This document shows positions 24,217 to 60,967 of a stretch of DNA of 64,000 nt, piece after piece. Position numbers and translations under genes: made by a program. The stretch lies in the NCBI GenBank assembly GCA_030681595.1, contig JAUXSB010000003.1, positions 31,207 to 95,206 of the forward strand, read 5' to 3'. Below the pieces are notes generated by a model. That model was not told the origin of the DNA, did not search any database, and saw nothing but the letters and a program-made list of their open reading frames with translations. The DNA is from Candidatus Omnitrophota bacterium. GTDB taxonomy: Bacteria; Omnitrophota; Gorgyraeia; Ghiorseimicrobiales; Ghiorseimicrobiaceae. Numbering within the stretch: the first letter of the stretch is position 1; the number at the start of each line of letters is the position of its first letter.

Positions 24217-24219
24217 AGC

Positions 24220-30778: not shown

Positions 30779-30838
30779 AAATTTTTTCCAGCGGCGCTTC
30801 GCTCACCGCAATCTTTCTCTATTCCAAGTCTAAATTTA

Positions 30839-30926: not shown

Positions 30927-30935
30927 AAAATATTT

Positions 30936-36032: not shown

Positions 36033-36956
36033 TCACAAAAACCAGGTTATAAGCGCTCCGGAAAACATCCAAAAGGCAAAGGGCGTAGTTTTCTGAATAG
36101 TTCTTTCGGAATAAAAATCAATTATTTTCTTAAGCATAGGGAACAGCAGCATAATCAATACGGTCGATATGAATGTATTTTTTATTTCAAAAATAAATCT
36201 TTTATCCGTATACACAAAGTATAGTATCAAAAAAACAAAAGTAATCATTATAAATTTGGTATTTTTTTTAAACATTTTGGAAAGCTTTTTAAAAAGCAAT
36301 AGGGCGATCAACATCAAAATATTCTGATCGGGTAAAATCCTACCGATTAAATTTTGTAATGCTTGTCGTAAAACCTTAAAAGCTAGAAAAAGAGTAAGAA
36401 AGCCAAAAAAGACTTTGCTTAATTCAATTTTATTAAATTTACTCTTCTCTTTAATTAATTCTGCGGTTTGCTTCTTTAATTTCCCAAAATTAAATTTTTT
36501 AATAAAGTAGGCGCATGACCGCAAAAAAAGATAAGCTGTCGCCGGTATAAAAATACTTAACAACAATGAAAAGGAAGCAAAGTAATAATTAAAATAAACC
36601 CGAGAATACTGCCCCATTGGAATAAGGGCAGAATAGCAGATAAAAAGCTTCGCATCCCCTGCTCCCCACATCTTAAAATACCATAGCGAATATGCCACAA
36701 TTATACTCGTTATTAAATTAACGCACCATTTGTCAAAATTATGGACTAAACCAGAAGATATTTCTGCTAAAACATTATTCGTAATTCCGCTTAAGGACAG
36801 ATAATAAATAATCCAGGAGGATAAATATAAAACACATGCGTAGATTAATCCTATTAAAATCCACTTATTTCTGATTTTAGAATACCTTAAGTCTTCGTAA
36901 GACGTAACAAGCCCGATAAAGAAAATTATCGGCAAAAAAATAATATTATTAATCAT
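36033..36956 (-). CDS. A24-family (prepilin-peptidase/CpaA-TadV-like) aspartic membrane peptidase with an extended C-terminal TM region
   Basis: 307 aa and polytopic. The first Asp motif is YEDLRYSKIRNKW (D-x5-I-x-N) and the second is MWGAGDAKLF (GxGDxKL). Confidence 0.6.
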   Translation of the reverse strand: MINNIIFLPIIFFIGLVTSYEDLRYSKIRNKWILIGLIYACVLYLSSWIIYYLSLSGITNNVLAEISSGLVHNFDKWCVNLITSIIVAYSLWYFKMWGAGDAKLFICYSALIPMGQYSRVYFNYYFASFSLLLSIFIPATAYLFLRSCAYFIKKFNFGKLKKQTAELIKEKSKFNKIELSKVFFGFLTLFLAFKVLRQALQNLIGRILPDQNILMLIALLLFKKLSKMFKKNTKFIMITFVFLILYFVYTDKRFIFEIKNTFISTVLIMLLFPMLKKIIDFYSERTIQKTTPFAFWMFSGALITWFL

Positions 36957-37214
36957 ATAACTAATAAGCTTTGTTAAAATTTATTTTATTTATTCTTGTT
37001 TCTAAATTATTACTATTACAACACATTGGCAACAAACAAGTTATGTATTTTTTAAAGCATCGTTAATAAATAAGGTTATATCTTTGCAACGCATAACCAT
37101 AACGTAACGCATTGCATTACAATAAGTTGTGAAAGAAGATTTCGCAAGATGCCCCTATTTTTAATAAAGCCCTGTAATAAATATTCCTCACGTAATTTTT
37201 TCTGTATTAAAGAT

Positions 37215-37700
37215 TCAAATATTATTGGATAATATCTTTTCCGAAATTTCTAACACCAAGCTTTTCAACTTAGAAAAATTGTTAGCATTTAATTTTAGAT
37301 ATTTATAGTAATATATAACGTAATCATGGTTAAAAAGTATGCCGTTACTCAGTTTATATTCGCCAAGATGCCGTAAAGCGAAAGCTAAATCTATCCAGTT
37401 ATCAAGATTGTCGGGGTTACGAGAAATGGATTTTAAAAAATATTTCTTCGCCTGAGAAAAGTCTTCGGCGATATAATAAATATATCCTGCAAGCGAAAAG
37501 ATTGTTTCTATCTGTTCTTCTTTTAACCAATTTTTAATTTTCCCTTGCAACATTCTTAATTTCTCGGGAGAAGAAAAATAAAGAATGGATAACCGGTAGA
37601 AAAGCGAATCTATCCGTTCAATATAGCCAGAAATATAATTTGTCTGACGAGGCGAGAGATCAAAACCAGCAATATTTTTAAATTCGTTACATATATCCAT
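37215..37700 (-). CDS. TPR-repeat protein
   Basis: 161 aa. AGYIYYIAEDFSQAKKYFLKSISRNPDNLDNWIDLAFALRHLGEY fits the TPR consensus. Confidence 0.55.
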   Translation of the reverse strand: MDICNEFKNIAGFDLSPRQTNYISGYIERIDSLFYRLSILYFSSPEKLRMLQGKIKNWLKEEQIETIFSLAGYIYYIAEDFSQAKKYFLKSISRNPDNLDNWIDLAFALRHLGEYKLSNGILFNHDYVIYYYKYLKLNANNFSKLKSLVLEISEKILSNNI

Positions 37701-38770
37701 TAATTAAACTGAACAATAAAAGGTATCTCCGGGGCAAAATTTCTCCTCTGCCATCTGATCCTTCTTATCAACTTGCCATTATTCAAAATCACAACATCTC
37801 TATCCTCTAAAAATACACAGTTTCCTCTTTTTAAGTCACTTTCATAAAGGTTATTTTCAGACATTTGACCAATGAAGTAGACATCTTTATAATGTAACTT
37901 ACCATTTTTAATCTCGCCATCAAAGGCATAAAATTTTATTTCATAAAAGATTAATAGGGGTAGTTTTAAATGCCTATCAATCTTTTCTACAAATTCCGGC
38001 TCTTCCGCATAAATCGCTTTTTTTATTTTTCTGGCCAATTCTATCGTAGCCTTACAATTATAAGCACAAGGCATATGATAGATATAGGAATAGGTAATAT
38101 CCCTAGTACAAGGATTAGATAAATAATGGTATCTATTTTTCTTGGTATTCTTAAATGCTTCATAAAGATAACTATACTTATACCAGTTATTAAACTGTCG
38201 AAAAAAACCGACACAACATTTTGGATATCCAAGGTTATATCCAAATTTAAAAATATCTATACCAGGCCTATCAATTACTCTATGTTTGATTATTAAAGGA
38301 TACCATCCATCTCTAAAACAATTTTCTAAGTTACCTTTTGATTTAGCAATAAATACATGAACAAGGCCATCTTTGCTTGACCCATTAAACGGTAAGCCAA
38401 ATGCATAAGTCGTAGTTAGGCGTTTACCACCTATAACATTTTTTAAAATATTTTTCTTTTTTGACATCCTAAAAACAGTATCGGTCCTTACAATAAGACC
38501 ATAGCGTTTGCATATTCTACGGTATTCATCATATCTATCCACCCTTACCCAGTCGTCCATCGCTGGCTTTATCTCTTTCACTGTAGCCATTATATTCACT
38601 AACTGCCCACTGCCCTTAATCTGGACAAATTCTCTACAGAATTTTTTTGGATAATAGGATTCAAACATTATAGATATAATGAAACTCCATGGCTTTACAG
38701 ACGCAGCACCCAAGAACCGCCTGCGCTTCGTTTTAGCTATGCCTGAAAGCAGGCATAGCTGCGACATCAC
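37700..38770 (-). CDS. Hypothetical protein (unknown family) in radical SAM cluster
   Basis: 356-aa ORF tightly packed with its neighbours (shared ATGA-type junction at 37700). It contains GYPKCCVGFF and MPCAYNCKAT. The start is uncertain, with alternative Met codons downstream. Confidence 0.5.
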   Translation of the reverse strand: MMSQLCLLSGIAKTKRRRFLGAASVKPWSFIISIMFESYYPKKFCREFVQIKGSGQLVNIMATVKEIKPAMDDWVRVDRYDEYRRICKRYGLIVRTDTVFRMSKKKNILKNVIGGKRLTTTYAFGLPFNGSSKDGLVHVFIAKSKGNLENCFRDGWYPLIIKHRVIDRPGIDIFKFGYNLGYPKCCVGFFRQFNNWYKYSYLYEAFKNTKKNRYHYLSNPCTRDITYSYIYHMPCAYNCKATIELARKIKKAIYAEEPEFVEKIDRHLKLPLLIFYEIKFYAFDGEIKNGKLHYKDVYFIGQMSENNLYESDLKRGNCVFLEDRDVVILNNGKLIRRIRWQRRNFAPEIPFIVQFN

Positions 38771-38794
38771 GCCACAACGCTTTTTGCGGATAAC

Positions 38795-39766
38795 TTAAGC
38801 GCCTTTTATCGGCCTGAATTCTTCAGAGCCATATGCCTTTAAATAATGGACATATGGCCCAAGACAAAGGCTATTGAATACGCACCCACTACAAGAAACC
38901 ACCTTCCTTCTAGAGGTATATTTAAATGAATCATCTTTATTCTTTACACTCACCAAATAACCTCTGGAAATTTTTAATATTACGCATCTGAACATCTCCT
39001 TGTCAATCTTATTAATTATGCAAAATGGCATAGAGAGAAAATATCTTGCAAAATATATAAATAAATCAGAATGATAACGATATCTTTTTGTATACAACTC
39101 TACGGCTTTTTTAAAATACCTTATGACCTTTGTATATCTGGGCATTAGAAAATGGTAAAAAATAAGGGAAGCGGCATGCGGCCTATAATGATCTATCATA
39201 AAACGCATTCCAGGAAACTGTTCAATTTTAAGCCTTACCAAAGATGGAATATCCGCATAATTTTGCGTTAAAAAAATACCGTTTAATGTTACGGGTAAAT
39301 CAAACCGAGATAAATTGTTCAATGCCTCCATCAAATCAACAAATGAACCTGGAGAATTAGTTATCGCATCGTTTATCTTTGCAGTAGATCCGTAAATAGG
39401 AACATGAAATCCATTAGCTCCTGCCGTTACGACTTTCTTTAGAAAAACAAAATTCTTTAATTTTCTTCCCGTGGTTTGAACGGTGATATTTGTAAAAGAT
39501 AATTTACGCGCAAAAACTAATAAATCAATAATGGATGAACGGTTCAGTATTTCGTTACCCGTAAAGCATATCTTGCGAAAACCAAGCGACTTCGCAAGGC
39601 GTATCCTACATTTAATTGTATTTATATCATCCGGCTCATCATGGGTAAGTTGTTGCGTATTTTTTCCATGTACTAATCGGCTGTTCTGACAAAACACGCA
39701 AGAGTTATCGCATTGCGAATCTAATACTAAAATTATTTCATCGTTGTTTTGGAGAATAGGCATCAC
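38795..39766 (-). CDS. Small radical SAM protein, paralog S13 (divergent)
   Basis: It has CDNSCVFC (CxxxCxxC), with FTGNEIL in place of GGEP. The C-terminal signature is CSGCVFNSLCLGPYVHYLKAYGSEEFRPIK. Confidence 0.7.
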   Translation of the reverse strand: MMPILQNNDEIILVLDSQCDNSCVFCQNSRLVHGKNTQQLTHDEPDDINTIKCRIRLAKSLGFRKICFTGNEILNRSSIIDLLVFARKLSFTNITVQTTGRKLKNFVFLKKVVTAGANGFHVPIYGSTAKINDAITNSPGSFVDLMEALNNLSRFDLPVTLNGIFLTQNYADIPSLVRLKIEQFPGMRFMIDHYRPHAASLIFYHFLMPRYTKVIRYFKKAVELYTKRYRYHSDLFIYFARYFLSMPFCIINKIDKEMFRCVILKISRGYLVSVKNKDDSFKYTSRRKVVSCSGCVFNSLCLGPYVHYLKAYGSEEFRPIKGA

Positions 39767-40650
39767 TTAACAGGTTTAAACTCTTGCCACCCAAAAAACT
39801 CAGGATATTCACGCCAGGGTCCCTCGCAAATTTTGAAATATTTGCATTCTTCACACTTCGGCCCTTTAAGTTTTCCATGTTCTCTGCGCCACTGGTTAAA
39901 ATTGGTTATCGGTTTAATATCAAATACCTTGGTTTCAGGAATAATCGCTTCACTAGCACAATTGGCATATTCGCTTAAAAAACAATACGGTATGGCTTCA
40001 GTTTTTGGCATTTTTTTCTTCCTAATGCCAATTTCCAGGCCGCGTTTTAAATAAAGAATAATATCTTTTTTCTGCGGTATTAGCCAACTATGATTCGCTA
40101 ATGCGTTTCCTAAAATATGAGGAAAGGAAAAACGATATTCAACCACCCCTAAGCCAACTAACATCAAAGCAATCTTAGGTAAAAAGCGGTAATTCAATGC
40201 AGTAATAACTGTATTAGTAAATACTACGCGACCAGAAGAAAGGAGATGCTTAATACCACAAATCGTCTGAGCGAAACTTCCCCTCGCTCCCGTATGGCTA
40301 TCATGCAACTCAGCATTATGTCCATGTACCGATATAGTAAAAAGACTTGCACCTGCCTCTATCATTTTTTTACAAAAATCTTTATACCTAAACATTCTTC
40401 CGTTGCTTTGAATATGAACAATATATCCTAACTTTTTAGAATATCTTACCAAGTCTATGATATCAAAACGTATTGTAGGTTCTCCACCTGTAAAAATTAC
40501 CTCTTTATAACTATCTTTCGAATCAGCTAAAATAGTTTCTATCTGTGAGCGCGCCATATCGTTGTAGATTTTGCGCTTGTTACCTTGGACACAAAAACTA
40601 CAGTGGTTATTACATCTAAAACTAATTTTTATATCCAGCCTCTTATGCAT
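39763..40650 (-). CDS. Small radical SAM protein, paralog S12
   Basis: It has RCNNHCSFCVQG, FTGGEPT, SVHGHNAELHD and IPYCFL. The C-terminus is CEECKYFKICEGPWREYPEFFGWQEFKPVK. Its closest paralog is 55967-56872. Confidence 0.85.
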   Translation of the reverse strand: MHKRLDIKISFRCNNHCSFCVQGNKRKIYNDMARSQIETILADSKDSYKEVIFTGGEPTIRFDIIDLVRYSKKLGYIVHIQSNGRMFRYKDFCKKMIEAGASLFTISVHGHNAELHDSHTGARGSFAQTICGIKHLLSSGRVVFTNTVITALNYRFLPKIALMLVGLGVVEYRFSFPHILGNALANHSWLIPQKKDIILYLKRGLEIGIRKKKMPKTEAIPYCFLSEYANCASEAIIPETKVFDIKPITNFNQWRREHGKLKGPKCEECKYFKICEGPWREYPEFFGWQEFKPVK

Positions 40651-40681
40651 ACATCTATCCTAACCTTAATTATCCGTTGTC

Positions 40682-41614
40682 TTACGGCTCGCTTTTAACA
40701 TGTTTTATTGTCTCTTCTTTGGAAACAAAAACAGCGTATAGTTCTTGCGAAGAAAAATATTTATCCATCGCATAAAGGCCGGGACATATTTCATTCAAAA
40801 AACAAACACTACAACACTCAACCTTGCCATATGACCATCCTCTTTGGACTTTAAGGCCCTTTTCATCTAAGAAATAAATCGCGCGCTTCTCTCTCTTTAT
40901 TATTTTTCTGGCTTCCGTAGAACAATGTGCAAAATCAGCCATGTAACATAAGGGTACGCGTTCCGCCCTAAAAGTTCTCTTTTGCTCGGCTAAAAAATGC
41001 ATTGCCCTATTGAGCTCTAATTCAAAATCTATCAGTCGGGGAATCGTATCGGGATTTTCTGATGCGCGGTTCATCGAAGGGTCAATATTATTCCAGATAA
41101 AATGGCGAATAAACGGATATCTATTCACAAGCCACGCCGTAATTCTGCTTAAATGATCGGCATTATATTTATTAATCACGGTAATAACATCAACCTGCAA
41201 ATTTAACTTTTTGGCATTGTTAAGCGTTTTTTTAATGTTACATAAAGAATCCTTGTTCTCAGTAAGAAAACCCTGAATATCAGCACTATCAGAGTAGATG
41301 GATAAATTGATATGGTTTAATCCTGCCTCTGCCAATGAGTTAATATATTTAAAGTCGGCTGTTTTTTGGCCATTCGTTATTATTCTGACTGGAAAATTTT
41401 TGTTTGTTGCATACGCGATCAATTCAATGAGATCTGGATATAGGGTCGGCTCTCCTCCGCTTAAAATAACCCCATCGCAACCTATCTTGACATAATAATC
41501 AATTAACTCCTTAGCTTTCTTAAGAGATATGGTTTTATCAAACGACGGATTAGAACAAAATCTGCATTTTTGATTACAAATACGCGTAACCTGTATATAA
41601 GCTAATTCGGCCAT
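40682..41614 (-). CDS. Small radical SAM protein, paralog S11
   Basis: It has ICNQKCRFCSNP, LSGGEPTLYP and VPLCYM. The C-terminus is CCSVCFLNEICPGLYAMDKYF. Confidence 0.85.
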   Translation of the reverse strand: MAELAYIQVTRICNQKCRFCSNPSFDKTISLKKAKELIDYYVKIGCDGVILSGGEPTLYPDLIELIAYATNKNFPVRIITNGQKTADFKYINSLAEAGLNHINLSIYSDSADIQGFLTENKDSLCNIKKTLNNAKKLNLQVDVITVINKYNADHLSRITAWLVNRYPFIRHFIWNNIDPSMNRASENPDTIPRLIDFELELNRAMHFLAEQKRTFRAERVPLCYMADFAHCSTEARKIIKREKRAIYFLDEKGLKVQRGWSYGKVECCSVCFLNEICPGLYAMDKYFSSQELYAVFVSKEETIKHVKSEP

Positions 41615-41618
41615 GTTT

Positions 41619-42644
41619 TCAGTAATTGCATTTATGTTTATGCTTGTTTTTTATTTCTGAATCAAATATGCTAATCCGCTCTAAAGTATGCAATATTTCT
41701 TTCGGATTTTTATCTGAAAGCGTTAGATTAAAATTAGGATAAACTTTTAGATAATCTCTTCTTACCCCCGGGCATATTTCACACAAAGAACAGCCTCTGC
41801 ATTCTCTGTATTTATAAAAATCTTCTTTGGCGATATCATTTTGAGTCCTGAGATTATTTATCCCGCGCGAATCAAGATATAAGTTATTATGATATAAATT
41901 TTCTTTTAATTCAACACTGGACCATTCATAAGAAGAGAGGATACATAACGGAAAACCGCAAGCAGAAATTTTATCCGTAGGGTTATCCCCTCCTAACGCC
42001 TTTAACGCTTTTAAAAGATAAGGCTGAATCTTATTTAGCGGAGGAAGTATCTTTTTGTAAAAAGTACTGTCATTGCCGCCTAAATCCATAAATTTAAATT
42101 TTACCCTGAATGGCGTATGCCTTAATATTTTTTTAAGATGAGTCGCCATGCCCTCTAATTCTTTATAATTCAAGCTATTAATTACCGTGTTGAAATTAAT
42201 CGCTAGCCTTTCTCTTATCTTTTTATTATCCTTATTAAATGATTCGATATTTAGTAAAGCCTTTTCCTGTAAAGAATGGCAAAACTTATTTCTTGATATG
42301 GCATTTGCAACCTTTGGGATATGCGAGTGAAAAGAAAAATTTATCTGCACGACTCCGCCTTTAATAACCTTAACTAAAAAATCATAGTAACTAAGCATTG
42401 AACCGTTAGTTGTAACCTTAAGTTTTAAATTACATTTTTTGGCTTCTTCCAATATTTTTAAAAAATCTGGCCTAATGAATGATTCCCCGGTCATTAACAT
42501 AACTGTATCTTCCTTGTAACTCTTAACTTTTTGAAACAATTGCCTAATTTCTCCAAAAGAAAGATCTTTTTTATGCTTATGCTGCCTATCCAGACAAAAT
42601 AAACAGTTGAAATTACATTTTTGGGTAATGCCTGTAATAATCAT
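41619..42644 (-). CDS. Small radical SAM protein, paralog S10
   Basis: It has KCNFNCLFCLD, LMTGESF and FPLCIL. The C-terminus is CRGCSLCEICPGVRRDYLKVY. Confidence 0.8.
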   Translation of the reverse strand: MIITGITQKCNFNCLFCLDRQHKHKKDLSFGEIRQLFQKVKSYKEDTVMLMTGESFIRPDFLKILEEAKKCNLKLKVTTNGSMLSYYDFLVKVIKGGVVQINFSFHSHIPKVANAISRNKFCHSLQEKALLNIESFNKDNKKIRERLAINFNTVINSLNYKELEGMATHLKKILRHTPFRVKFKFMDLGGNDSTFYKKILPPLNKIQPYLLKALKALGGDNPTDKISACGFPLCILSSYEWSSVELKENLYHNNLYLDSRGINNLRTQNDIAKEDFYKYRECRGCSLCEICPGVRRDYLKVYPNFNLTLSDKNPKEILHTLERISIFDSEIKNKHKHKCNY

Positions 42645-45693: not shown

Positions 45694-45696
45694 TCT

Positions 45697-47055: not shown

Positions 47056-47063
47056 ATGAATAA

Positions 47064-47990: not shown

Positions 47991-47994
47991 ATCA

Positions 47995-48912: not shown

Positions 48913-48922
48913 TGATAATAGT

Positions 48923-50455: not shown

Positions 50456-50536
50456 TTAAAAGCGTGAAAATGTGTTTTCTTTCGAATAAATACGCAAATT
50501 ACTGTGAATCATTTTTTTAAATTTACGGTTATCCCC

Positions 50537-50775
50537 CTAGGTGTTTAAAAGTATATCCCGTATAGACGAAGAGGTTTTTCCGATATCATCCAAACTTTTT
50601 ATATCATTCACTGTGCCAAAATAAAATTCTCTTTTTAGCTTTTTAAATTTAGTCTCAAGCAATGGCCCCCCACAAAATATATCCCCCCGTCGCAATCAAC
50701 AGCCGGTTCAGAAGATATGATCCGCTCACCTTCCCGAATTTTGAAATTCGCTATAAAATTAATAATCTATTGATA
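50537..50775 (-). pseudogene. Possible decayed or frameshifted small ORF in the only large intergenic gap of the cluster
   Basis: Two overlapping minus-strand frames read ...EGERIISSEPAVDCDGGIYFVGG and GGPLLETKFKKLKREFYFGTVNDIKSLDDIGKTSSSIRDILLNT*. Adding one G in the G6 tract (50666-50671 on plus) would fuse them. No canonical start codon is present. Confidence 0.25.
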
Positions 50776-50800
50776 CTGGGTAAAACTTGCGTATCCATAA

Positions 50801-53114: not shown

Positions 53115-54082
53115 TAATTAATAGACGTGAAATCGTCAACGCCAAAATTATCGATATAATCTTTATATGGCCCGATACAGCTGTTCCTTCTCTTGCAATC
53201 CAGGCATTTATCAATCGGGGGATTTTGAATAATTACCTCCTTAGCATATAAATTGGGGTAAGAATCTAAATTTAAAACTTTTTTATCAAACGCAATACAA
53301 AATGGAAGTTCGGAAGAAGCGTCGTTTAGTTTACCGAATCTCTCCAAAACACAAACCGGAAAACCACGGAGAAATTCTTTTGACTTTTTTAGCTTGAAGA
53401 ATAAATTACGATACGGAACCATTAAATCCTTATAGTTAATGTCCTTGGGAAATGGATGAAATTTAACATGGATGAACCCATCAAAAAAAAATCTTGGGAA
53501 GGCATAATTACAAAACCCGAGAATATCATCTAAAAAACAATAATTTTGCTTTAATACAATGGAATGAAGATTGATATTCAACTCCCTAATCTTATTTAAT
53601 GCGCGTAAAACGCTGACAAGCGCTTCAAATGAACCTTTTTTCCGGACAACTCTGTCATGCACTCTAGCATCGGCGCCATAAATCGGTATATAGAAATTAA
53701 ATTTTAAAGGCAGACGCAAGATATTATCTAATGTATCTTTTTGTCCTAATTTTAACCCGGAAGTATGCAGATTGACTTCTTCATAGCCAAGCTTATGGCT
53801 AAAATTTAAAATTTGCGCTATAAATGGATGTGCCAGAGGCTCATCACCGCTTAAAAATATCTTTTTTAACTTTAGCCGCCTTCCAATGGCTAAAAGCCCT
53901 TTTATCCTAAACAATTCGCTATTAAGGCTATTATTTTTAATTTTACCCGGCTTACCGGGATAATTGGAAGTGCAAAAAATACAGTCATAGTCGCATTTAC
54001 TTGAAATTGGCAGAAGCGCATATTCAATTTTATTTAAAAGGGGCAAATTCTTTGTCACCATAGATTTTAAGGTATTCTTCAA
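53114..54082 (-). CDS. Small radical SAM protein, paralog S3
   Basis: It has KCDYDCIFCTS, LSGDEPLAHP, IYGADARVHD and FPVCVL. The C-terminus is CLDCKRRNSCIGPYKDYIDNFGVDDFTSIN. It overlaps the upstream gene by 32-53 nt, depending on which start is used. Confidence 0.8.
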   Translation of the reverse strand: MKNTLKSMVTKNLPLLNKIEYALLPISSKCDYDCIFCTSNYPGKPGKIKNNSLNSELFRIKGLLAIGRRLKLKKIFLSGDEPLAHPFIAQILNFSHKLGYEEVNLHTSGLKLGQKDTLDNILRLPLKFNFYIPIYGADARVHDRVVRKKGSFEALVSVLRALNKIRELNINLHSIVLKQNYCFLDDILGFCNYAFPRFFFDGFIHVKFHPFPKDINYKDLMVPYRNLFFKLKKSKEFLRGFPVCVLERFGKLNDASSELPFCIAFDKKVLNLDSYPNLYAKEVIIQNPPIDKCLDCKRRNSCIGPYKDYIDNFGVDDFTSIN

Positions 54083-54977
54083 AGATTCCTCCGCATACAG
54101 AAAATAGCCGGCATTTTATACATTTAGCGATTTTTATTCTCGACATATCAATTATATTGCTGGAAAAATTTGATATTGATTTTCGCGTGCTTATTTCCCT
54201 ATTCCAAAGGCACATTTCTGAGTCATTCTTAAACCTTTTACCTATCCTCATCTCTGGCTCATAAACTTCAAAAGCATACATAAAATTATCCTTGCCTAAA
54301 ATACATAACGGCACGCCCCCGAATCTTAACGGTATCCCGGATTCTTTTGAATATTCTGCCAATTTAAGGATATATTGCTTAAGCTTACTAAAATTTACTA
54401 CTAAATTTTTATAATCGTTTTTCGCATTTCCGCTAGGGACCAAATTTAAGTACCTTACGCAGCGGGGGCTATATTTAGACACGACTTTAAATATATCCAG
54501 CAATGACGCGGCATTATGTTTTGTTATGGTTACATTTACAAGAAATGCTTTTTTATAATATTTCCTAACATTTTTAAAAGCTTTTATCAATATCTTAAAA
54601 CTATTCTTATTGCCGGTATGTAAATTATGCACATATTCATCCGGGCCTTGTATTGAAAGGCACAAATCGTCGATATATTCAAAAGCCCTATTGCAAAAAA
54701 CTTTATCGGTAAACATAACACCATTCGATATAACATAAATTTGATAATTTAGATTTTTTGCGGCATGTAAAATTTCAAGAAACTTAGAATGCAAAGTTGG
54801 TTCTCCTCCCATAAAATGGACTAAACGCGCTCCCCGCTTTTTCTCTTTTTTCAGAACTTTTATTATAAATCCAAACGGGAGTTCACTATTATCAAACCTT
54901 GAATTCTCGCTGCAAAAAATACAGTTATTTGAACATTTATTCGCGATAAATAATTCTATCCTGTTTATTTTAAACAT
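54030..54977 (-). CDS. Small radical SAM protein, paralog S2
   Basis: It has KCSNNCIFCSEN, FMGGEPTLHS, SIQGPDEYVHN and VPLCIL. The C-terminus is CIKCRLFSVCGGIFEEYLKIYGDKEFAPFK. Confidence 0.85.
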   Translation of the reverse strand: MFKINRIELFIANKCSNNCIFCSENSRFDNSELPFGFIIKVLKKEKKRGARLVHFMGGEPTLHSKFLEILHAAKNLNYQIYVISNGVMFTDKVFCNRAFEYIDDLCLSIQGPDEYVHNLHTGNKNSFKILIKAFKNVRKYYKKAFLVNVTITKHNAASLLDIFKVVSKYSPRCVRYLNLVPSGNAKNDYKNLVVNFSKLKQYILKLAEYSKESGIPLRFGGVPLCILGKDNFMYAFEVYEPEMRIGKRFKNDSEMCLWNREISTRKSISNFSSNIIDMSRIKIAKCIKCRLFSVCGGIFEEYLKIYGDKEFAPFK

Positions 54978-55977
54978 ATGATTTATGTTTTATGGAAAAA
55001 TGCAGGTCTGCCTTATAATTCATGCCCTGATTTCGTTTCCTGTCCGTACTGATAATGCATGGATACATAACAAAATCATTTTTATCGCAAATTTTAATAA
55101 GATCTTCAATCGCGTTAAGATGAGATCTTAAATTCCAGCATTTCAAAAAATTAAAAATCTCTTTGTACGAGCTACTGAAATCGGAAATATTGTTTTCGTA
55201 AATTTTTAATATTTTTAACGGAATAAGGTGGCCGCCCTTATCAAAACGGTATGCGATTTGGTAAAAAGCGGACTTTTCTTTTGTGAATTTTTCAAAGAAA
55301 TTTTCAAAATAAGCATACTGCCGCCAAGTAAGCAGGTCTCTATACCTGCCTAAACTCAAATGCTTTGAATAATTGTATATTTTAATGCTGTATGTTGAAT
55401 CGCAAAAAAAATCTATCCCAATAACACTTATTAAATAATCTTTTAAGGCAGTAATAATATCTTCGCCATTAAAATTTATAATTTTACTAATAGTTGAAAT
55501 TTTGTTAAGCCTGCTCTTTTGAGAATCAGAAATGAGTAATTCTTCTAAGTATATTTTTAATCTTGGGTATGAGCCTATAGGCCAATCCATGCCGAATGTG
55601 GTCTGATGTTTATCCCTAACTTTTATCGCATTGAAAATCTCTTTAAGCTTGAGTGTGTTGTAGCGTGTTTTATAATTATAATTCAATACGTTAAAAGCAT
55701 TAATTATTTTTTTATCAAATGATTGTTTTTCATTATAATTGTTGTAGGTAAACCTAAAATTTGAAATATGGTCATACCCTTTGATTAAAGAAAAGGAAAA
55801 GTCAAATTTAAAATGCGCCGGGACATCTCTATGGTTGGAATGTTTTATTATCGAATCTTTTACTGCGCTTACAACTTTTTTATTAATGCTACCGCCTATC
55901 TCGCCTAACAGATAGCCTATAATATTCGAGATGGATAAAAAAAATAAACGATTTCTATTTATTGCGCTATCGCCCAT
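54970..55977 (-). CDS. Hypothetical protein (unknown family) embedded between radical SAM genes
   Basis: 335-aa ORF that overlaps both neighbours (8 and 11 nt). It has no Cys motif and no feature I recognise. Confidence 0.5.
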   Translation of the reverse strand: MGDSAINRNRLFFLSISNIIGYLLGEIGGSINKKVVSAVKDSIIKHSNHRDVPAHFKFDFSFSLIKGYDHISNFRFTYNNYNEKQSFDKKIINAFNVLNYNYKTRYNTLKLKEIFNAIKVRDKHQTTFGMDWPIGSYPRLKIYLEELLISDSQKSRLNKISTISKIINFNGEDIITALKDYLISVIGIDFFCDSTYSIKIYNYSKHLSLGRYRDLLTWRQYAYFENFFEKFTKEKSAFYQIAYRFDKGGHLIPLKILKIYENNISDFSSSYKEIFNFLKCWNLRSHLNAIEDLIKICDKNDFVMYPCIISTDRKRNQGMNYKADLHFSIKHKSYV

Positions 55978-56872
55978 ATTTTTTTAGGACAGGGACAAAT
56001 TCTGACCAGCCAAATTTTTCAGGATACTCTTTCCACGGCCCTTCACAAATTTTATAATGATAGCAATGCCTGCAAGACAAATTCTTCGCTTTTCCTTCTT
56101 TTTTACGTACTTTCGTAAAATCATCGATAACCTTTCCAAGGTCATAAATTATTGTTTCGGGTATAATCTTTTCAGCGATATAATCTTCATAGCCTTGCAT
56201 GAAACAATAAGGTATTGCTTCTGTCATGACTTTTTTATTAGCCTTGATACCTATACCCAAACCTTCCTTAACATAGGGCATAACCATTGAAATTCTCGGC
56301 ACAACAGAATAAAAATTATCGCCTGCCGAACCGGCAGCATGGACAAATGCAAATTGAAATTGGTCAACGCCAAGTTTTACCAAAAGCTCAGCGATTTGCG
56401 CTAGATGCCTATAATTAGGTTTAGTAATAACCGTGTTAGTGATTACAGTTTGATTTCGTTGTTTTAAATTTATTATTCCCGCGACAGTCTCGTTAAAGCT
56501 GCCGGCAGAAGAAGTCAAATAATCATGGACTTGGGCGATATGCCCATGGAGTGCCGGAGAAAATTCATTCGCCCCTGCGGCAATAATTTCATCGCAAAAC
56601 TTTTTATAATAGAATATCCTGCCGTTAGTTTGTATTTGGATAATTTTAAATTTCAATCTTTTGGCATGGCCAACCAAATCTAAAATATCGCTTCGTATTG
56701 TAGGCTCGCCTCCGGTAAAAACAACCCCATCGCAGTCTCGCCTGGCATCCTCTAAAATCTTCTTTATAGCAAGAGTATCTTTATCGCTTTGCAGGTGTCT
56801 CTTCTTGCCCTGGACGCAAAACCGGCAATGGTTATTGCAAGCAAATCCGATTTTAATATCAACTCTTTTCAT
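55967..56872 (-). CDS. Small radical SAM protein, paralog S1
   Basis: It has ACNNHCRFCVQG, FTGGEPT, ALHGHIAQVHD and IPYCFM. The C-terminus is CRHCYHYKICEGPWKEYPEKFGWSEFVPV. Confidence 0.85.
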   Translation of the reverse strand: MKRVDIKIGFACNNHCRFCVQGKKRHLQSDKDTLAIKKILEDARRDCDGVVFTGGEPTIRSDILDLVGHAKRLKFKIIQIQTNGRIFYYKKFCDEIIAAGANEFSPALHGHIAQVHDYLTSSAGSFNETVAGIINLKQRNQTVITNTVITKPNYRHLAQIAELLVKLGVDQFQFAFVHAAGSAGDNFYSVVPRISMVMPYVKEGLGIGIKANKKVMTEAIPYCFMQGYEDYIAEKIIPETIIYDLGKVIDDFTKVRKKEGKAKNLSCRHCYHYKICEGPWKEYPEKFGWSEFVPVLKKYGR

Positions 56873-57842
56873 TTTTAAGGTAGCGCACGAAAGATGTTAA
56901 AACTTTATCTACTGCCATTGTAGAATCAAAAATCGGCTTAGAGACGCCCTCTTTAATTATTTGCCTAATATTTGCCAAACCGGGAAAATGAGTTTTTATA
57001 AAAGGAAGGCTTCTAACGGACCCGATCTTAAGTTGTTTTCTAAAAGGGGCGAAATATTTAGCCAAAAATAAATTATTTGTGAAAATGTCGCCATTACAGT
57101 CAACGACTAAACCGGCGTTAAATAAAGGAACGGTATTCGTAAAGTCTAAATTCCTAATATAGATATCCATTTTATTTCTGTTCCCTAGTATAAATCTTGC
57201 GATTTTATAAAAATTATTTTTCAACAATTTTATTTTATTTTTATCCCAATAAATAAAATAAGCCGGCAAAAAGTTAAAACGATTAAAACCCAGCTTCAGG
57301 ACATAGATAAAATTATTATAAAATACCTCTGCGGTATTGGGCGCAATAACCATATTTATAGTTACGCGGCCCGGATAAGAAGAAAAGAGTTTGTGTCTAT
57401 TTAAAATTATTGTATCAAACGATTCTTTTTTATTCTTTGTAATCCTATTGCGTAATTGGGTATCTCGATCGCCATCTAAACTTATAATTAATTCTATATC
57501 CCTGTTTGTCTTTAAAAAATCTATGATTTTATTGTTTAATAACGACCCGTTGGTCGTCAGTTGAAATTGAATTTTTTTATGCAAAATTTCCGCTTTTTTT
57601 CTTGCGAATATTATAATATCCCTTAGCAAAGCAAAATTCATTAATGGCTCGCCGCCGGAAAATTTGATTAAACAATTATCGGGCGCGATTTTCAAAAAAA
57701 AATCTACGGATATTATGGCGATATCATAATTTATCTTTGAAAAATCACGTATGGTTGGACAATACCGGCACTGGAAATTACAGCGATGGTTTATTATAAT
57801 TATTAGTTGCGGGGGGAGCGAATTAATATTACCATTGGCCAT
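56859..57842 (-). CDS. Radical SAM enzyme, HxsC-like (no full SPASM Cys set)
   Basis: It has HRCNFQCRYCPT, FSGGEPLMNF and VDCNGDIF. I placed the start at the ATG at 57842 (MANGNINS). This overlaps the precursor stop by 14 nt. The track's longer N-terminus (MAPMAPMAP...) is the HGS-repeat DNA read in another frame. Confidence 0.65.
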   Translation of the reverse strand: MANGNINSLPPQLIIIINHRCNFQCRYCPTIRDFSKINYDIAIISVDFFLKIAPDNCLIKFSGGEPLMNFALLRDIIIFARKKAEILHKKIQFQLTTNGSLLNNKIIDFLKTNRDIELIISLDGDRDTQLRNRITKNKKESFDTIILNRHKLFSSYPGRVTINMVIAPNTAEVFYNNFIYVLKLGFNRFNFLPAYFIYWDKNKIKLLKNNFYKIARFILGNRNKMDIYIRNLDFTNTVPLFNAGLVVDCNGDIFTNNLFLAKYFAPFRKQLKIGSVRSLPFIKTHFPGLANIRQIIKEGVSKPIFDSTMAVDKVLTSFVRYLKNEKS

Positions 57843-58125
57843 GAGAACCATGGGAACTATGGGAGCCATGGGAGCCATGGGAGCCATGCGGAGTGCCCGA
57901 ATTATGCCCTCCTCTGCCGGCTGTAACAAGAGCATTAGCATGGTTATTATGCGAAGCATGGCTGGCAGCCTGGGCAGAATCAGGCTTAAACATCGCGGAT
58001 AAAACAGCTAAAGATATCCCTATCTTAGCGATATCCTTTTTGCTAATTTTACCTTCTTCTCTTAAAAGGAAATCTTTTATTTGCTTCTTGATCCGCGGTA
58101 ACCTACTTTCGTTTTTTTCTTTCAT
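57829..58125 (-). CDS. His-Xaa-Ser repeat peptide (HxsA-like), candidate RiPP precursor
   Basis: 98 aa. The N-terminus is charged (MKEKNESRLPRIKKQIKDFLLREEGKISKKD) and is followed by the hydrophobic segment IAKIGISLAVLSAMF. The C-terminus is ASHASHNNHAN...HNSGTPHGSHGSHGSHSSHGSHGQW. The DNA has 9-bp tandem CATGGCTCC repeats. A G8 tract lies 4 nt upstream of the ATG. Confidence 0.65.
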   Translation of the reverse strand: MKEKNESRLPRIKKQIKDFLLREEGKISKKDIAKIGISLAVLSAMFKPDSAQAASHASHNNHANALVTAGRGGHNSGTPHGSHGSHGSHSSHGSHGQW

Positions 58126-58154
58126 CGTACCCCCCCCTTGCTTATAGCTAGAAA

Positions 58155-58895
58155 CTACTCTACCGGCTGTCTATCGGCTTCTTTAGAAAAACTATCTTTT
58201 GAAGCTGGATAATACTGTTCAAAGAAATTTCTAAAACTTTTGCATTTCTTGCAAACACTCTCATCCCGTGATACGCTGCCTTTACATAACATGCTAAGGT
58301 ATTCATCGCTTATCTCATTACACTTATTAACATCATTAGTTTCCAACGCCTGTATATAATAAACCCTACCGGTGCACTTCTTATCCCCTTTACTGCAATA
58401 CTTAGGGTCTCTAAGCCTAAGCGCCATACAGTCATTTTTCTGGTCCTTACTTATTGAATTATCACACGCAGCAACATCTTGAGCAAAAAAACTGTCCGCT
58501 ACTTTACGGCAATCTACGGCAGTTGGTTTACCTTCCTGTTTCTGGCAGGCCTCCATAAACTTCTGGGTAACAGAACCCATCACAACCAGTTCGCTAAAAA
58601 ATCTGTGGAAACCATAGAAATTACGCCTACATAAATTAGCTTCATCTTTCGATAAATTATTGCATACACTTACGTTATCTCTAGCGGCTGCTAAACACGT
58701 CAGATATGTATCTAAAAAACCCTGCCTTTTCGAATAACCTTCAAATATAACTTTACTTAAATTGTCTATATTAAAATCATTGATTGCTTGTTCCTTGGCA
58801 TTATCTTCGGCCAAAGCATTACAATTATTAAACCCAACTAAAAAGCATCCACCCAACAAAGCTATTACTAAAAACCTGAATATGAAAGTTTTCAT
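58155..58895 (-). CDS. Secreted or lipoprotein-like Cys-rich protein (about 15 Cys)
   Basis: I placed the start at the ATG at 58895 (MKTFIFRFLVIALLGGCF), which forms an ATGA overlap with the upstream stop. It has a signal peptide with a lipobox-like LLGGC. Cys residues are spread throughout, including CKKC. Confidence 0.55.
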   Translation of the reverse strand: MKTFIFRFLVIALLGGCFLVGFNNCNALAEDNAKEQAINDFNIDNLSKVIFEGYSKRQGFLDTYLTCLAAARDNVSVCNNLSKDEANLCRRNFYGFHRFFSELVVMGSVTQKFMEACQKQEGKPTAVDCRKVADSFFAQDVAACDNSISKDQKNDCMALRLRDPKYCSKGDKKCTGRVYYIQALETNDVNKCNEISDEYLSMLCKGSVSRDESVCKKCKSFRNFFEQYYPASKDSFSKEADRQPVE

Positions 58896-60361
58896 AGCGC
58901 CGCCTTTCCTTTCGTGCAATCTTTTACCCAGCGTTCAAATATATTCTTATATTGACTATTCTGTAATTTTTCAAAGAGATAGTCCAAAATCGCGCCGTTA
59001 ATCTTACATCTTCCATTAAAAGGCTGAAATATATTTTTGCTTTCCGTATAATTTAATAAAGGGCACACACCGCAATATGGTTTATAGACACATTGGCTGC
59101 ACTCAGGGATATTATCTAAACAGGAGCTTATACACATCGCCTTAACAGTTGGATGCTCAATTATATTTTTATATGTGTCGGTTTTTACGTTTCCGACCTT
59201 AAATGATTCATCTCCTAGCCTGCTAAGCATCCTGCCTTCGTCGCATGTGTAGATATCACCGTTATAATTATAAGCTACTTGGCCGATACCGGCGCCGCAA
59301 GGAGAGCGCATATCCATATAGCCGGGGTCATAATCAGTAAGTATTTTATATAGGAATATGAACGCCGTCCTCTCGTAAAAATTGCTTCCTTTTAAATTTA
59401 ACTCTAAGATATAATCCAGGGATTCTTTATAAAACTCAATAAATTCTCCCCACGAATACGCGAGGCTATCCGCCTTGGGCGCCAATGCAAATGTGGACAA
59501 GGGACGTAAATGGATACAATCTAATCCACCCTTTATATACTCATCAATAATCTCTTTGGAATGGCCGAAACAACGATTGGTCACCGTCAATAATGCATTT
59601 GGGCGGTGCTTAAAACCCGTTTTTTCAAATTCTATTTTTATCTTCCTAAGCCACTTTACGGTATTGCGGTAGCTATTGATATTCTTATTAAGGCTTACGC
59701 GATTTCTATTATGTATATGTTCCGGGCCATCAAGCGATGTACAAATACTTACGTCATTTTTTATTAAAAATTTTAATATCTCATCTGTTAAACAACTCAA
59801 ATTAGAAACAAGAGAAAGCGTTAATTTTTTTTCTTTATTCTTATTTTTTTTCTTGGCATATTCAATTATAAATTTTACTGTATTAAAATTAAGTAACGGC
59901 TCTCCTCCTTGAAATTCGATAGTAATTTCGGGGGCCGGAAATTCAAAAATTTTATCAACAACAGACTTGGCTGTCGGGATATCCATATCTAAACCGGCCG
60001 TCTTAATGCCTCCGGAGTTAGCTTGACAATAGGCGCATTTGTGGTCGCATCTTAATGTTACCACTATTATATGCAAGCTAGTCCCTCGAGATAAAAAATC
60101 GTGCTTGTTTGCATATTTGGCAATTAACTTATCAAAATCTAATTTATTACGCACAAAACTTTTGTTTATAAGCTCATCGTATTTAACCTCATCCTGCTTC
60201 ATAATCTCGTTAATCTCTCCCTTTATGAAGCTATTAAACCAGCCCGGTTTTAAAAAACAGTATTCTCCTACATCATTAGTGACAAGATAGCTGCCGTTAA
60301 ACCTCTTGAAACGAAAGTATGAAACCGCTTTCTTGTCAATCAAATTTACATCTATAGCCAT
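58892..60361 (-). CDS. Radical SAM/SPASM-domain peptide maturase, HxsB-like
   Basis: 489 aa. An N-terminal ~95-aa extension precedes RCDHKCAYCQA and FQGGEPLLNF. The C-terminal SPASM-type motifs are CGAGIGQ...YTCDEG...CSQCVYKPYCGVCP. Confidence 0.7.
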   Translation of the reverse strand: MAIDVNLIDKKAVSYFRFKRFNGSYLVTNDVGEYCFLKPGWFNSFIKGEINEIMKQDEVKYDELINKSFVRNKLDFDKLIAKYANKHDFLSRGTSLHIIVVTLRCDHKCAYCQANSGGIKTAGLDMDIPTAKSVVDKIFEFPAPEITIEFQGGEPLLNFNTVKFIIEYAKKKNKNKEKKLTLSLVSNLSCLTDEILKFLIKNDVSICTSLDGPEHIHNRNRVSLNKNINSYRNTVKWLRKIKIEFEKTGFKHRPNALLTVTNRCFGHSKEIIDEYIKGGLDCIHLRPLSTFALAPKADSLAYSWGEFIEFYKESLDYILELNLKGSNFYERTAFIFLYKILTDYDPGYMDMRSPCGAGIGQVAYNYNGDIYTCDEGRMLSRLGDESFKVGNVKTDTYKNIIEHPTVKAMCISSCLDNIPECSQCVYKPYCGVCPLLNYTESKNIFQPFNGRCKINGAILDYLFEKLQNSQYKNIFERWVKDCTKGKAAL

Positions 60362-60561
60362 TCTTTATTACTCCATAAGGCATAATTGGCAAACTCGTCA
60401 ACAAATACTTTTTTAAAATCTTGATCAATATCATTTATTTCTACCTGCGTATAGTTTTTAGTATTTTTAATTATAAATTTCGCCAAATGGGCATAAGCCG
60501 AAACTGCCGCTTTAACCGCCCTCCTATTATATAATTTATTATTAAACTTTAGATTCCACAT
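60352..60561 (-). CDS. Small HxsD-like protein (short paralog)
   Basis: 69 aa. ...AVKAAVSAYAHLAKFII...VEINDI...FVDEFANYALW resembles the HxsD pattern, in which a strand-rich N-terminus is followed by an F-x-N-E/D-x-x-D/N-Y-x-L-R-like motif. Confidence 0.4.
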   Translation of the reverse strand: MWNLKFNNKLYNRRAVKAAVSAYAHLAKFIIKNTKNYTQVEINDIDQDFKKVFVDEFANYALWSNKEWL

Positions 60562-60967
60562 TATCTTTTTTTACTTTTTTATTTTTACCGTATTTATCTT
60601 CCCAGGGCACAGCTATCCCAAGCGGATCATCGCGATAATCCAGCTTTTCATCAGAAGAAAACAAATCAAAATTTGAATCCGGCGGAGTAGAGTATAGGGC
60701 ACGGGCAACAACATATTCGCGTATCTTCTTATTATTTTTACTTACTATACACCTTAAAGCAGAATATAATAGTTCATTCATAAAGCTATCTTTCAGTAAC
60801 TCTATTTGCCTATCGGAAAGTTTCTTTTTGGGCTTAAGCGAAACTACCACCTTCTCGTCTTTACCGGCATCTAAATCCAGAAAAAAATAAATAGAATCAA
60901 TAAAAAGATAACACGTGCTTAAAATGGCTTCTAACGGATATATTTTGGTTCTTAGTTCTATTTTCAT
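60542..60967 (-). CDS. HxsD-like protein
   Basis: 141 aa. IYPLEAILSTCYLFIDSIYFFLD...VVVSLKPK...LKDSFMNELLYSALRCIVSKNNKKIREYVVARAL matches my recollection of the HxsD family (LLNDYxLRE-type motif). Confidence 0.55.
   Translation of the reverse strand: MKIELRTKIYPLEAILSTCYLFIDSIYFFLDLDAGKDEKVVVSLKPKKKLSDRQIELLKDSFMNELLYSALRCIVSKNNKKIREYVVARALYSTPPDSNFDLFSSDEKLDYRDDPLGIAVPWEDKYGKNKKVKKDNVESKV

Follow-up and report, generated by a model that had tools for sequence, protein, structure and literature searches.

The best-described system with which the locus reported here can be compared is the His-Xaa-Ser (HXS) system, which in the TIGRFAMs definition of Haft and Basu, as cited in PMC9062424, consists of HxsD, HxsB, HxsC and HxsA. 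In Escherichia coli, HXS is an antiphage system, and its product works in the periplasm to counter the entry of phage DNA (Li et al. 2026, PMC13128918). HxsA is matured by HxsB, HxsC and HxsD, of which HxsC and HxsD form a complex, and the modification amounts to +8 Da on the sequence SHRSS; its chemistry is unsolved, no in-vitro reconstitution having been achieved (PMC13128918). Canonical HXS is found in Pseudomonadota in 99.7% of cases and has just four proteins in more than 99.8% of them (PMC13128918). Radical S-adenosylmethionine (rSAM)/SPASM cyclophane synthases can link the C2 of His to a beta-carbon within three-residue motifs (PMC11499958). NCBIfam also holds models called HxsA4 (NF038313), HxsC4 (NF038332) and HxsD_rel (NF038315), which are bioinformatic definitions only. 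Here we analyze a block of genes located at positions 36033-60967 of a 64-kb stretch of DNA from a Candidatus Omnitrophota bacterium (contig JAUXSB010000003.1; the whole stretch analyzed is called the window). With a probability that we put at about 70%, this block encodes an expanded HxsA4-type His-Xaa-Ser maturation system, in which one exported HxS-repeat peptide is hyper-modified in the cytoplasm.

The block comprises 25 consecutive open reading frames (ORFs), as established by ORF listing and translation; these, and all the other genes of the window described below, lie on the minus strand. The CxxxCxxC motif is present in 17 of the 25 products and occurs twice in the 696-aa product of 42644-44734, which brings the number of rSAM domains to 18. 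All 17 genes match rSAM profiles, with NCBIfam E-values of about 1e-16 to 1e-147, and the four that were scanned with Pfam Radical_SAM score 49-77 bits; the 17 genes and their 18 domains are intact, none being decayed. These counts of genes and domains bear out those of an earlier reading of the same DNA (the original prediction). Among eight flanking ORFs translated outside the block, CxxxCxxC occurs in MtaB only. The same locus is present in an independent Logan assembly of the same organism (L001; related loci are designated below by such numbers).

Two architectural features put forward in the original prediction need qualification. The genes are indeed co-directional, but this is not distinctive because all the real genes of the window are on the minus strand. 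As to the junctions, the 345-bp gap (50456-50800) and the spacer given as about 260 bp (258 bp, 36957-37214) are as described, and the remaining listed junctions are no longer than 31 bp or overlap, but two gene starts have to be corrected. Since its homologues are 322-324 aa long, the product of 37700-38770 likely starts at residue 35 (position 38668), giving a protein of 322 aa and a junction of 126 bp with the preceding rSAM gene, S13. The rSAM gene at 56859-57959 likely starts at the ATG at 57842 (327 aa), in a 14-nt overlap with hxsA4. Furthermore, the cluster probably begins one gene upstream of position 60967, with 61011-61601, because the secreted Cys-rich protein that this gene encodes precedes HxsD in at least 11 related loci. 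We therefore count the whole system as 26 genes, i.e. the 25 ORFs of the block plus 61011-61601.

The identification of an Hxs-like core, already made in the original prediction, was confirmed, HxsD, the HxsD-like protein, HxsB and HxsA4 all scoring above the curated NCBIfam cut-offs. HxsD (60542-60967) scores 55.4 against TIGR03976 (cut-off 50) and is 30% identical to the HxsD of the canonical operon used for comparison throughout, hxsD-hxsB-hxsC-hxsA from plasmid 4 of Aeromonas salmonicida. The small HxsD-like protein (69 aa, 60352-60561) scores 64.8 against HxsD_rel (cut-off 41), and its gene is kept after hxsD in related loci. HxsB (58892-60361), an rSAM/SPASM maturase, matches TIGR03978 over its full length (490, cut-off 370) and canonical HxsB at 38% identity; it also gives weak matches (45-59 bits) to the XyeB, GrrM, FxsB and YhhB models. 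A GenBank entry that is 100% identical to it, from a Candidatus Omnitrophota metagenome-assembled genome (MAG), is named HxsB.

By contrast, the product of 56859-57959, originally predicted to be HxsC-like, is an HxsB-like rSAM enzyme devoid of the SPASM cysteines (hereafter the R enzyme). Its best NCBIfam matches are to PapB (130 bits), CcpM and HxsB (82 bits), all within the N-terminal half, and it also best-matches the N-terminal rSAM cores of anSME-type enzymes. Canonical HxsB matches it at 28% identity, whereas canonical HxsC gives no match. R orthologues, at most 53% identical, come after HxsA4 in related loci.

Two Cys-rich secreted proteins complete the head of the cluster. The probable first gene (61011-61601) encodes a 196-aa protein with a signal-peptide-like N-terminus and 9 Cys, for which profile searches gave no family match; its homologues ahead of HxsD are weak (30-45% identity). 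The second protein (254 aa, 58155-58919), equally without a family match in profile searches, resembles a lipoprotein, having a signal peptide with a lipobox-like LGGC and 15 Cys. In Omnitrophota it keeps its place between HxsB and HxsA4, and about 10 of its Cys columns are conserved; we read it as a disulfide-stabilised exported partner of the system rather than as a substrate.

The substrate candidate is the HxsA4 precursor (98 aa, 57829-58125), which scores 60.7 against NF038313 (cut-off 55) and covers positions 2-93 of the 93 of the profile. It consists of a conserved Lys-rich leader, a short hydrophobic segment, an AxA site and a His/Ser/Gly core of about 45 residues, which contains seven HxS triplets and ends in HGQW. 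This layout is recognizable in 23 distinct HxsA4 homologues: they share the leader motif LPxIKKxIKDFLxxEEGKI(S/T)KK and a near-invariant Gly directly ahead of a 12-16-residue hydrophobic segment, itself followed by an AxA-type site, and their cores are His-rich and end in (HxS)n followed by HGQW, GGWC or a similar Trp-containing tail. No second His-repeat or leader-bearing precursor ORF was found in the 64-kb window. At the DNA level, the core of hxsA4 contains a 9-bp tandem repeat, CATGGCTCC on the coding strand (His-Gly-Ser; 57838-57893; period 9 and 6.1 copies according to Tandem Repeats Finder), with three perfect copies in the window versus four in L001 (7780-7990), i.e. 98 versus 101 aa. 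The copy number likewise differs between the near-identical relatives L002 (12161-12457, 98 aa) and L003 (7985-8263, 92 aa). These differences are either strain-level variation of the substrate core or an assembly effect.

The bulk of the rSAM enzymes belong to an HxsC-homologous set of 13 small genes and 14 domains, whose domains are labelled S1-S13, S8/S9 being one fusion gene. In NCBIfam, 12 of the 13 S genes match HxsC4 or HxsC (TIGR03977) best, S10 being the exception, with HxsC4 on top for eight, and canonical HxsC matches 11 of the 13 S domains, S1 best (28% over 234 aa, E 6e-20). The alignments of S1, S4, S5 and S6 to the HxsC4 profile run from end to end. Canonical HxsC and the S domains have a common architecture, made of an rSAM core, a conserved P.C and a C-terminal CxxCx5C(C)G; CxxxCxxC, the C-terminal P.C and CxxCx5CxG are kept in all 13 S domains, which refutes the decay of these genes that had been envisaged, and GGEP is exact in eight and varied in the other five. 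The four C-terminal Cys would hold one auxiliary Fe-S cluster of the twitch type. On the other hand, the S domains lack the N-terminal domain of HxsC (~105 aa), and they are homologues rather than members of the two families since their scores are far below both curated cut-offs: 56-217 bits against HxsC4 (best single domain 166, cut-off 500) and, against HxsC, 104 for the best single domain (S1) and 187 for the two-domain fusion (cut-off 267.9). The original prediction had described 15 further rSAM genes beyond an Hxs core. The extra genes are real, but the S genes are homologous to HxsC and do not form a separate class; the locus therefore corresponds to a 14-fold expansion of HxsC paralogues, accompanied by three other rSAM enzymes, and not to 15 unrelated additions.

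This expansion is an old one. Pairwise identity among the 13 S domains is 18-35%, only S1 and S12 reaching 50%, while the best orthologues found elsewhere are 70% identical for S1, 63-64% for S8/S9, 61% for S11 and S12, 60% for S6 and 56% for S7 and S10 (59% for the second HemN-like enzyme described below). The S domains, as judged from these identities, are diverged paralogues with orthologues in other genomes, and the contrast between 18-35% mutual identity and 50-70% orthologue identity, archaea included, suggests distinct functions kept for a long time.

We then considered the related loci, about 130 altogether, which were obtained by searches with three anchors, namely HxsB, the tail gene 37700-38770 and the S8/S9 fusion. 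A scan of genome contigs with the single HxsB sequence gave no match, whereas an alignment-based scan with the family of the tail gene (DUF483-like, see below) did; loci were viewed over at most 23 kb, reaching 10 kb on each side of the anchor. In many Omnitrophota they are built on a constant frame. The head consists of the secreted protein, HxsD, the HxsD-like protein, HxsB, the Cys-rich lipoprotein-like protein, HxsA4, R and S1, and the tail of S12, the DUF483-like protein, a TPR protein and an A24-like GxGD peptidase; between the two lies a variable rSAM middle, the loci totalling 4 to ~10 domains elsewhere versus 18 here. Because the tail frame is shared by the relatives, the tail genes, peptidase included, belong to the system. 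The three genes listed last in the original prediction (for an unknown protein, a TPR protein and the A24 peptidase) are thus conserved, integral parts of it and not mere trailing neighbours. The S array and the Hxs core adjoin in many genomes, so that a chance juxtaposition of two clusters is refuted.

Within this frame the number of enzymes varies widely. The minimal version (L009) fits the whole system into 10.9 kb, with 12 genes and four rSAM enzymes. L010 has eight rSAM domains, with orthologues of HemN-like 2, S8/S9 and S11 in the same order as in the window, and L004 at least nine in its first 10 kb. The largest co-directional rSAM count elsewhere is 10 domains (L064 and L049, in views of at most 23 kb), and 4-7 is typical; a minimal set made of HxsB, the HxsB-like enzyme, S1, S8 and S11 recurs. 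In a view of the same size, 10 kb on either side of S8/S9, the window shows 14 complete rSAM domains and most of S2. The rSAM density, originally described as extreme, is thus the highest seen in the ~130 loci, although larger arrays may extend beyond the 10 kb viewed on each side elsewhere; with counts of 4-10 elsewhere and 18 here the window stands at the top end of a continuum and is not a singleton. Relatives differ by gains and losses of modules in the middle of the array, and gene order is colinear between genomes.

The DUF483-like gene and S-type rSAM genes occur together in Omnitrophota, including the complete genome of Candidatus Velamenicoccus archaeovorus, in MAGs labelled Planctomycetia, Elusimicrobia and UBP9, in Patescibacteria and in DPANN archaea. 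Orthologues of S1 and S8 are found at 55% and 48% identity in Woesearchaeota loci. This distribution suggests exchange between domains among ultra-small organisms, MAG contamination being possible. Carriers of the DUF483-like gene include L036 and L048 (Woesearchaeota), L035 (Micrarchaeota), L040 (Nanohaloarchaea), L018 and L047 (Patescibacteria), and most of these loci from DPANN archaea and the candidate phyla radiation also have S-type rSAM genes, whose products are 30-58% identical to Omnitrophota proteins.

The individual S genes, in order of transcription, are as follows. S1 (55967-56872), the most conserved HxsC paralogue, scores 166 against HxsC4 and 104 bits against HxsC, both below cut-off; its orthologues are 50-70% identical and found in 33 loci, and the solved structures nearest to it include BlsE and the GDGT-MAS (tetraether) synthase. 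S2 (54030-54977; HxsC 87.7, HxsC4 86.8) keeps all motifs and has orthologues in L132 (87% identity) and L130 (60%, partial). S3 (53114-54082; HxsC4 65.7, HxsC 62.3) also keeps the motifs and has an orthologue in L132 (85%). Indeed, the whole segment from S1 to S3, including the 335-aa protein encoded between S1 and S2, is found again in L132, which comes from another sample, at 83-90% identity. The motifs are likewise kept in S4 (50801-51742; HxsC4 116.5) and S5 (47995-48912; HxsC4 117). S6 (47064-47990; HxsC 98.7) and S7 (44731-45693; HxsC4 161) have orthologues of up to 60% and 56% identity, respectively. The S8/S9 fusion (42644-44734) reaches 217 against HxsC4 and 187 against HxsC over two to three stretches, with orthologues in L010 (58%) and L049 (63%); in L013, a UBA9636 MAG, the S9 half is split into pieces of 67 and 181 aa (7488-8227), either a pseudogene or a sequencing error. 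S10 (41619-42644) is the most divergent, its top match being viperin-like (65.8), with HxsC4 fourth at 58.6 and HxsC at 43.6; it has an orthologue in L049 (56%). S11 (40682-41614; HxsC 84.5) has orthologues at 61% in L010 and L013 and matches of at least 40% in 28 loci. S12 (39763-40650; HxsC4 144), the close paralogue of S1, is found directly ahead of the DUF483-like gene in related loci, with orthologues at 60-61% in L008, L009, L011 and L012. Finally, S13 (38795-39766; HxsC4 84.9) keeps the motifs and has no close orthologue among the related loci compared.

The tail of the cluster begins with the DUF483-like protein (37700-38770, with the likely start at 38668), which is rich in Cys and His and gave no informative fold match in the PDB. 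Its constant partner is a small TPR protein (37215-37700), the TPR matches of which are near or below the Pfam cut-offs; orthologues (55-68% identity) come after the DUF483-like gene in L008-L012 and in many other loci. The last gene (36033-36956) encodes the A24-like GxGD membrane aspartyl peptidase, which scores 24.3 against Pfam Peptidase_A24 (cut-off 26.5). Residue D22 and the sequence G100-D101-A-K103 are invariant in 18 of 18 homologues, and D22 and D101 would be the two catalytic Asp of GxGD/prepilin peptidases. Orthologues of this protein (44-61% identity) directly follow the TPR gene in L008-L013, and it is present in most loci with S1, S8 and S11. Taken with the conserved "K-x-G | hydrophobic" site of HxsA4, its constancy suggests a role of the peptidase in leader removal.

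Three rSAM enzymes of the array belong neither to the HxsB-like nor to the HxsC-like enzymes. Two are HemN-like (class C). The first (51720-53114) scores 183 bits against the STM4012 family, 169 against HemZ and 152 against HemW, all below cut-off, and 77 bits against Pfam Radical_SAM; the second (45697-47055), with an orthologue in L010, scores 151, 150 and 140 against the same three families. Against HemN itself (TIGR00538) they reach 154 and 138, versus a cut-off of 325. The third is a B12-binding (class B) enzyme (48923-50455), with Pfam scores of 31.5 for B12-binding, just under the cut-off of 32.1, and 63 for Radical_SAM. It had been described as BchE-like, which is not borne out: it scores 36 bits against BchE (TIGR02026, cut-off 481), and its best family is TIGR04190 (175 bits, cut-off 500).

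The product of 54970-55977, previously an unknown protein, gave no hidden Markov model match and has only four relatives in 5.8 billion proteins. Its AlphaFold2 (AF2) model (mean confidence, pLDDT, 79) consists of five alpha-beta-beta-alpha (ABBA) units, i.e. 10 strands in five hairpins, and Foldseek against the PDB gave a probability of 1.0 and TM scores of about 0.7 to DMATS, IptA and PriB; TM scores are 0.53-0.60 to the cyanobactin prenyltransferases PirF, PagF and PatF and to the histidine prenyltransferase FunA. The protein is therefore predicted to adopt the PT-barrel fold of ABBA (aromatic) prenyltransferases. The ABBA-fold gene is followed by an S2-type rSAM gene in all three loci whose neighbours are visible (the window; L132, 923-1930; L130, 5316-6278).

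Between these genes, the 345-bp gap at 50456-50800 (not assigned to a strand), ahead of the B12-rSAM gene, is possibly an internal promoter region. It gave no Rfam match, and therefore contains no cobalamin or SAM riboswitch, and no repeat or peptide-like ORF of note, the only ORF being one of 52 aa for which no homologue was found. Rfam searches of the other gaps revealed no riboswitch or other RNA element, the sole match in the window being a tRNA-Ser(CGA) at 30838-30927 on the minus strand. A sigma-70-like site with 11 of 12 matching positions lies at 61678-61650, just upstream of 61011-61601; the counts of promoter-like sites and terminators in the region do not exceed those expected from shuffled sequences.

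The rest of the window contains housekeeping and chemotaxis genes (LptD, alcohol dehydrogenase, CheA, MCP, CheR, CTP synthase, H+-PPase), including, downstream of the cluster at 13537-25374 and on the minus strand, genes for a PAS-GGDEF-HD protein, a hybrid histidine kinase, CheR-TPR, CheA-CheW-REC and an MCP. The GC content is 0.30-0.37 inside the block versus 0.39-0.46 in the flanks, that is about 7 points lower across 36000-62000; relatives nonetheless share the same flanking genes. A recently acquired island, which the low GC content brings to mind, was rejected as a simple reading, the upstream flank being shared with L004 (Memo/AMMECR1, RsmE, MtaB) and the downstream flank with L017 (YeiH, ROK). 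A phage-borne origin was rejected as well, viral contigs holding only relatives at 24-28% identity.

Several related loci differ in content. L022 comes from Candidatus Velamenicoccus archaeovorus LiM (NZ_CP019384.1, 895753-916709), no other named genus being represented among the Omnitrophota loci. It has several SPASM-type rSAM enzymes, an HxsB-like rSAM enzyme, the DUF483-like gene, a fusion of a glycosyltransferase with an S domain (702 aa), a TPR gene, a CoA-ligase-like gene and two genes of about 340 aa that are U32-peptidase-like by eye; no Hxs core is visible within 10 kb. In Actinomycetota, the DUF483-like/TPR pair is found at 27-31% identity in L038 (Spirillospora sp.) and L045 (Mycolicibacterium rhodesiae JS60), where it neighbours other rSAM genes and Hxs genes are missing. 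Other tailoring genes include a YcaO in L008 (7732-9024) and U32-peptidase-like genes in L002 (19328-20320) and L006 (16192-19839), the latter also with an asparagine synthase and a GT2 glycosyltransferase.

Of the two products envisaged in the original prediction, a RiPP-like peptide (made on the ribosome and modified after translation) is the better reading. By analogy with E. coli HXS, in which HxsC and HxsD form a complex and SHRSS gains 8 Da, the rSAM enzymes would modify the HxS core of HxsA4 in the cytoplasm, guided by the leader and by HxsD-type partners. HxsB and the HxsC-type enzymes (up to 14 domains) would probably introduce His- or Ser-centred cross-links, and the HemN-like and B12 enzymes would probably add carbon, by C-methylation or methylene transfer. 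The ABBA protein, if its modelled fold is a guide to its function, may attach a prenyl group to an aromatic residue of HxsA4 such as its C-terminal Trp or a His. The GxGD peptidase, acting on the cytoplasmic face, would then cut off the leader at the conserved Gly, and the modified peptide would end up outside the cytoplasm, possibly alongside the Cys-rich lipoprotein-like protein. As regards its biological role, a periplasmic antiviral barrier, as in HXS, is the nearest analogy; PADLOC 2023, which contains no Hxs model, gave only generic viperin-level rSAM matches.

Several observations weigh against this reading. HxsA4, with its 98 aa and long conserved leader, differs from canonical HxsA and has no peptidoglycan-binding domain, and the cluster is flanked by housekeeping genes rather than lying in a defence island. 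The assignment of HxsA4 as substrate is putative for each of the 18 domains, and cleavage at its Gly is deduced from position and motif. The chemistry of the S domains may differ from that of HxsC and HxsC4, all scores being far below the cut-offs, and PatF-type ABBA proteins can lack catalytic activity. S-type rSAM genes and the DUF483-like/TPR pair also occur without a visible Hxs core, as in Candidatus Velamenicoccus. Lastly, across nine loci, the number of rSAM enzymes does not follow the total His count of the precursor (rho -0.38) and shows only a weak relation to the strict HxS count (rho 0.73, p 0.03, in a tiny, hand-counted sample).

We also entertain, as a tentative extension that may well prove wrong, the possibility that all 18 rSAM domains and the prenyltransferase-like protein act on the single HxS core of about 45 residues, and that a modular "Hxs4" toolkit (HxsC paralogues, GxGD leader peptidase, DUF483-like protein) is exchanged between ultra-small bacteria (Omnitrophota and Patescibacteria) and DPANN archaea and serves the cell envelope, for instance in keeping out viruses or attacking a host. 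If all 18 domains do share one substrate, it would be the most heavily rSAM-tailored ribosomal product known.

Alternatively, there could be several substrates, HxsB, the HxsB-like enzyme and S1 acting on HxsA4 while most S paralogues act on other proteins, e.g. the products of 58155-58919 and 61011-61601 or targets encoded elsewhere. The conservation of two Cys-rich secreted proteins in the cluster speaks for this explanation, as do the failure of precursor His content to scale with rSAM number, the minimal systems with just four rSAM enzymes and the S-type genes that accompany the DUF483-like/TPR pair away from a visible Hxs core. We nevertheless consider it unlikely: the Cys pattern of the 254-aa protein resembles the paired structural disulfides of an exported helical protein, the window holds no second leader-bearing peptide, and HxsC-family enzymes have so far been tied only to HxS proteins.

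Redundancy is a still less probable explanation. The HxsC paralogues would be back-ups for one another, carrying out the same reaction, and an arms race, such as one with viral inhibitors, would maintain them; this would suit the antiphage function of canonical HXS, the gain and loss of modules in the middle of the array and the variation in hxsA4 repeat number between near-identical strains. The paralogues are however only 18-35% identical to one another and yet have orthologues at 50-70% identity elsewhere, even in archaea, in a colinear gene order. Least probable of all, slightly behind redundancy, is a non-peptide product (a cofactor, a lipid or a tetrapyrrole derivative) made next to separate Hxs genes: despite the HemN-like and B12-rSAM enzymes, the BlsE and GDGT-MAS structures near S1 and the glycosyltransferase and CoA-ligase-like genes of Velamenicoccus-type relatives, nothing supports the tetrapyrrole, lipid or cofactor originally envisaged. 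In many genomes the array is enclosed by the Hxs head on one side and the peptidase tail on the other, the S domains are homologous to HxsC, the HemN-like and B12 enzymes score far below every tetrapyrrole family cut-off, BchE and HemN included, and profile searches of the block found no sugar, lipid or isoprenoid-backbone genes.

Returning to the HxsA4-type maturation system that we favor, its core genes are already named in GenBank and NCBIfam, and the existence of the HxsA4, HxsC4 and HxsD_rel models implies that curators had noticed the variant. Our literature search turned up no publication on HxsA4 or HxsC4, nor any on arrays of rSAM genes in Omnitrophota or Velamenicoccus, and the frame made of GxGD peptidase, DUF483-like and TPR proteins, the HxsC radiation, the 18-domain extreme and the prenyltransferase-like member appear undescribed. 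The locus and its relatives reveal a second, modular form of Hxs, almost entirely outside Pseudomonadota, in which HxsC has radiated into many long-lived orthologous groups. The additions to this form are a GxGD peptidase of the membrane, a conserved Cys/His protein and, in some cases, a prenyltransferase-like protein; it links Hxs biology to uncultured ultra-small bacteria and archaea. The related loci form a natural "add-one-enzyme" series, with 4, 7-8, ~10 and 18 rSAM domains around the same type of precursor, which could help work out the role of each HxsC-type enzyme. This is of interest for rSAM and RiPP enzymology, the chemistry of Hxs modification being still unsolved.

Compared with canonical HXS, the system described here has an HxsD and an HxsB that pass the curated cut-offs, a substrate with tandem His-Xaa-Ser triplets and an export signal, and S enzymes that share the rSAM core and C-terminal Cys motif of HxsC. 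It differs in having 26 genes instead of four, in the order sec-D-d-B-Y-A-R-S1 onward, and 14 HxsC-like domains without the N-terminal domain, and its hosts are Omnitrophota and other ultra-small lineages rather than Pseudomonadota. It also has in addition an HxsB-like rSAM enzyme, two HemN-like enzymes, a B12-rSAM enzyme, an ABBA-fold protein, the DUF483-like, TPR and A24-like proteins and two Cys-rich secreted proteins. With respect to the NCBIfam Hxs4 models, HxsA4 and HxsD_rel pass whereas no S domain nears the HxsC4 cut-off, and the rSAM array, the peptidase and the DUF483-like/TPR tail are in no Hxs4 definition that we found.

The resemblance extends to the His-acting triceptide synthases HtkB and HaaB (PMC11499958), which are likewise SPASM maturases and whose targets are repeated three-residue motifs with His or an aromatic residue in first position. 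HxsB is however a distinct equivalog, and the E. coli Hxs modification is +8 Da and not the -2 Da of a simple cross-link. Precedents for RiPP pathways with multiple tailoring enzymes are provided by the polytheonamide enzymes PoyB, PoyC and PoyD and, as regards prenylation, by the cyanobactin F-type prenyltransferases. In multi-rSAM pathways, enzymes of several rSAM classes, B12-dependent C-methyltransferases among them, act on one and the same leader-bearing peptide. The present cluster departs from multi-rSAM pathways by its 17 rSAM genes, several times more than they have, and by a GxGD membrane peptidase in place of a dedicated ABC exporter or C39 protease. It is like them in bringing together one leader-bearing peptide, several classes of rSAM enzymes, including a B12-dependent one, and an ABBA-fold enzyme.

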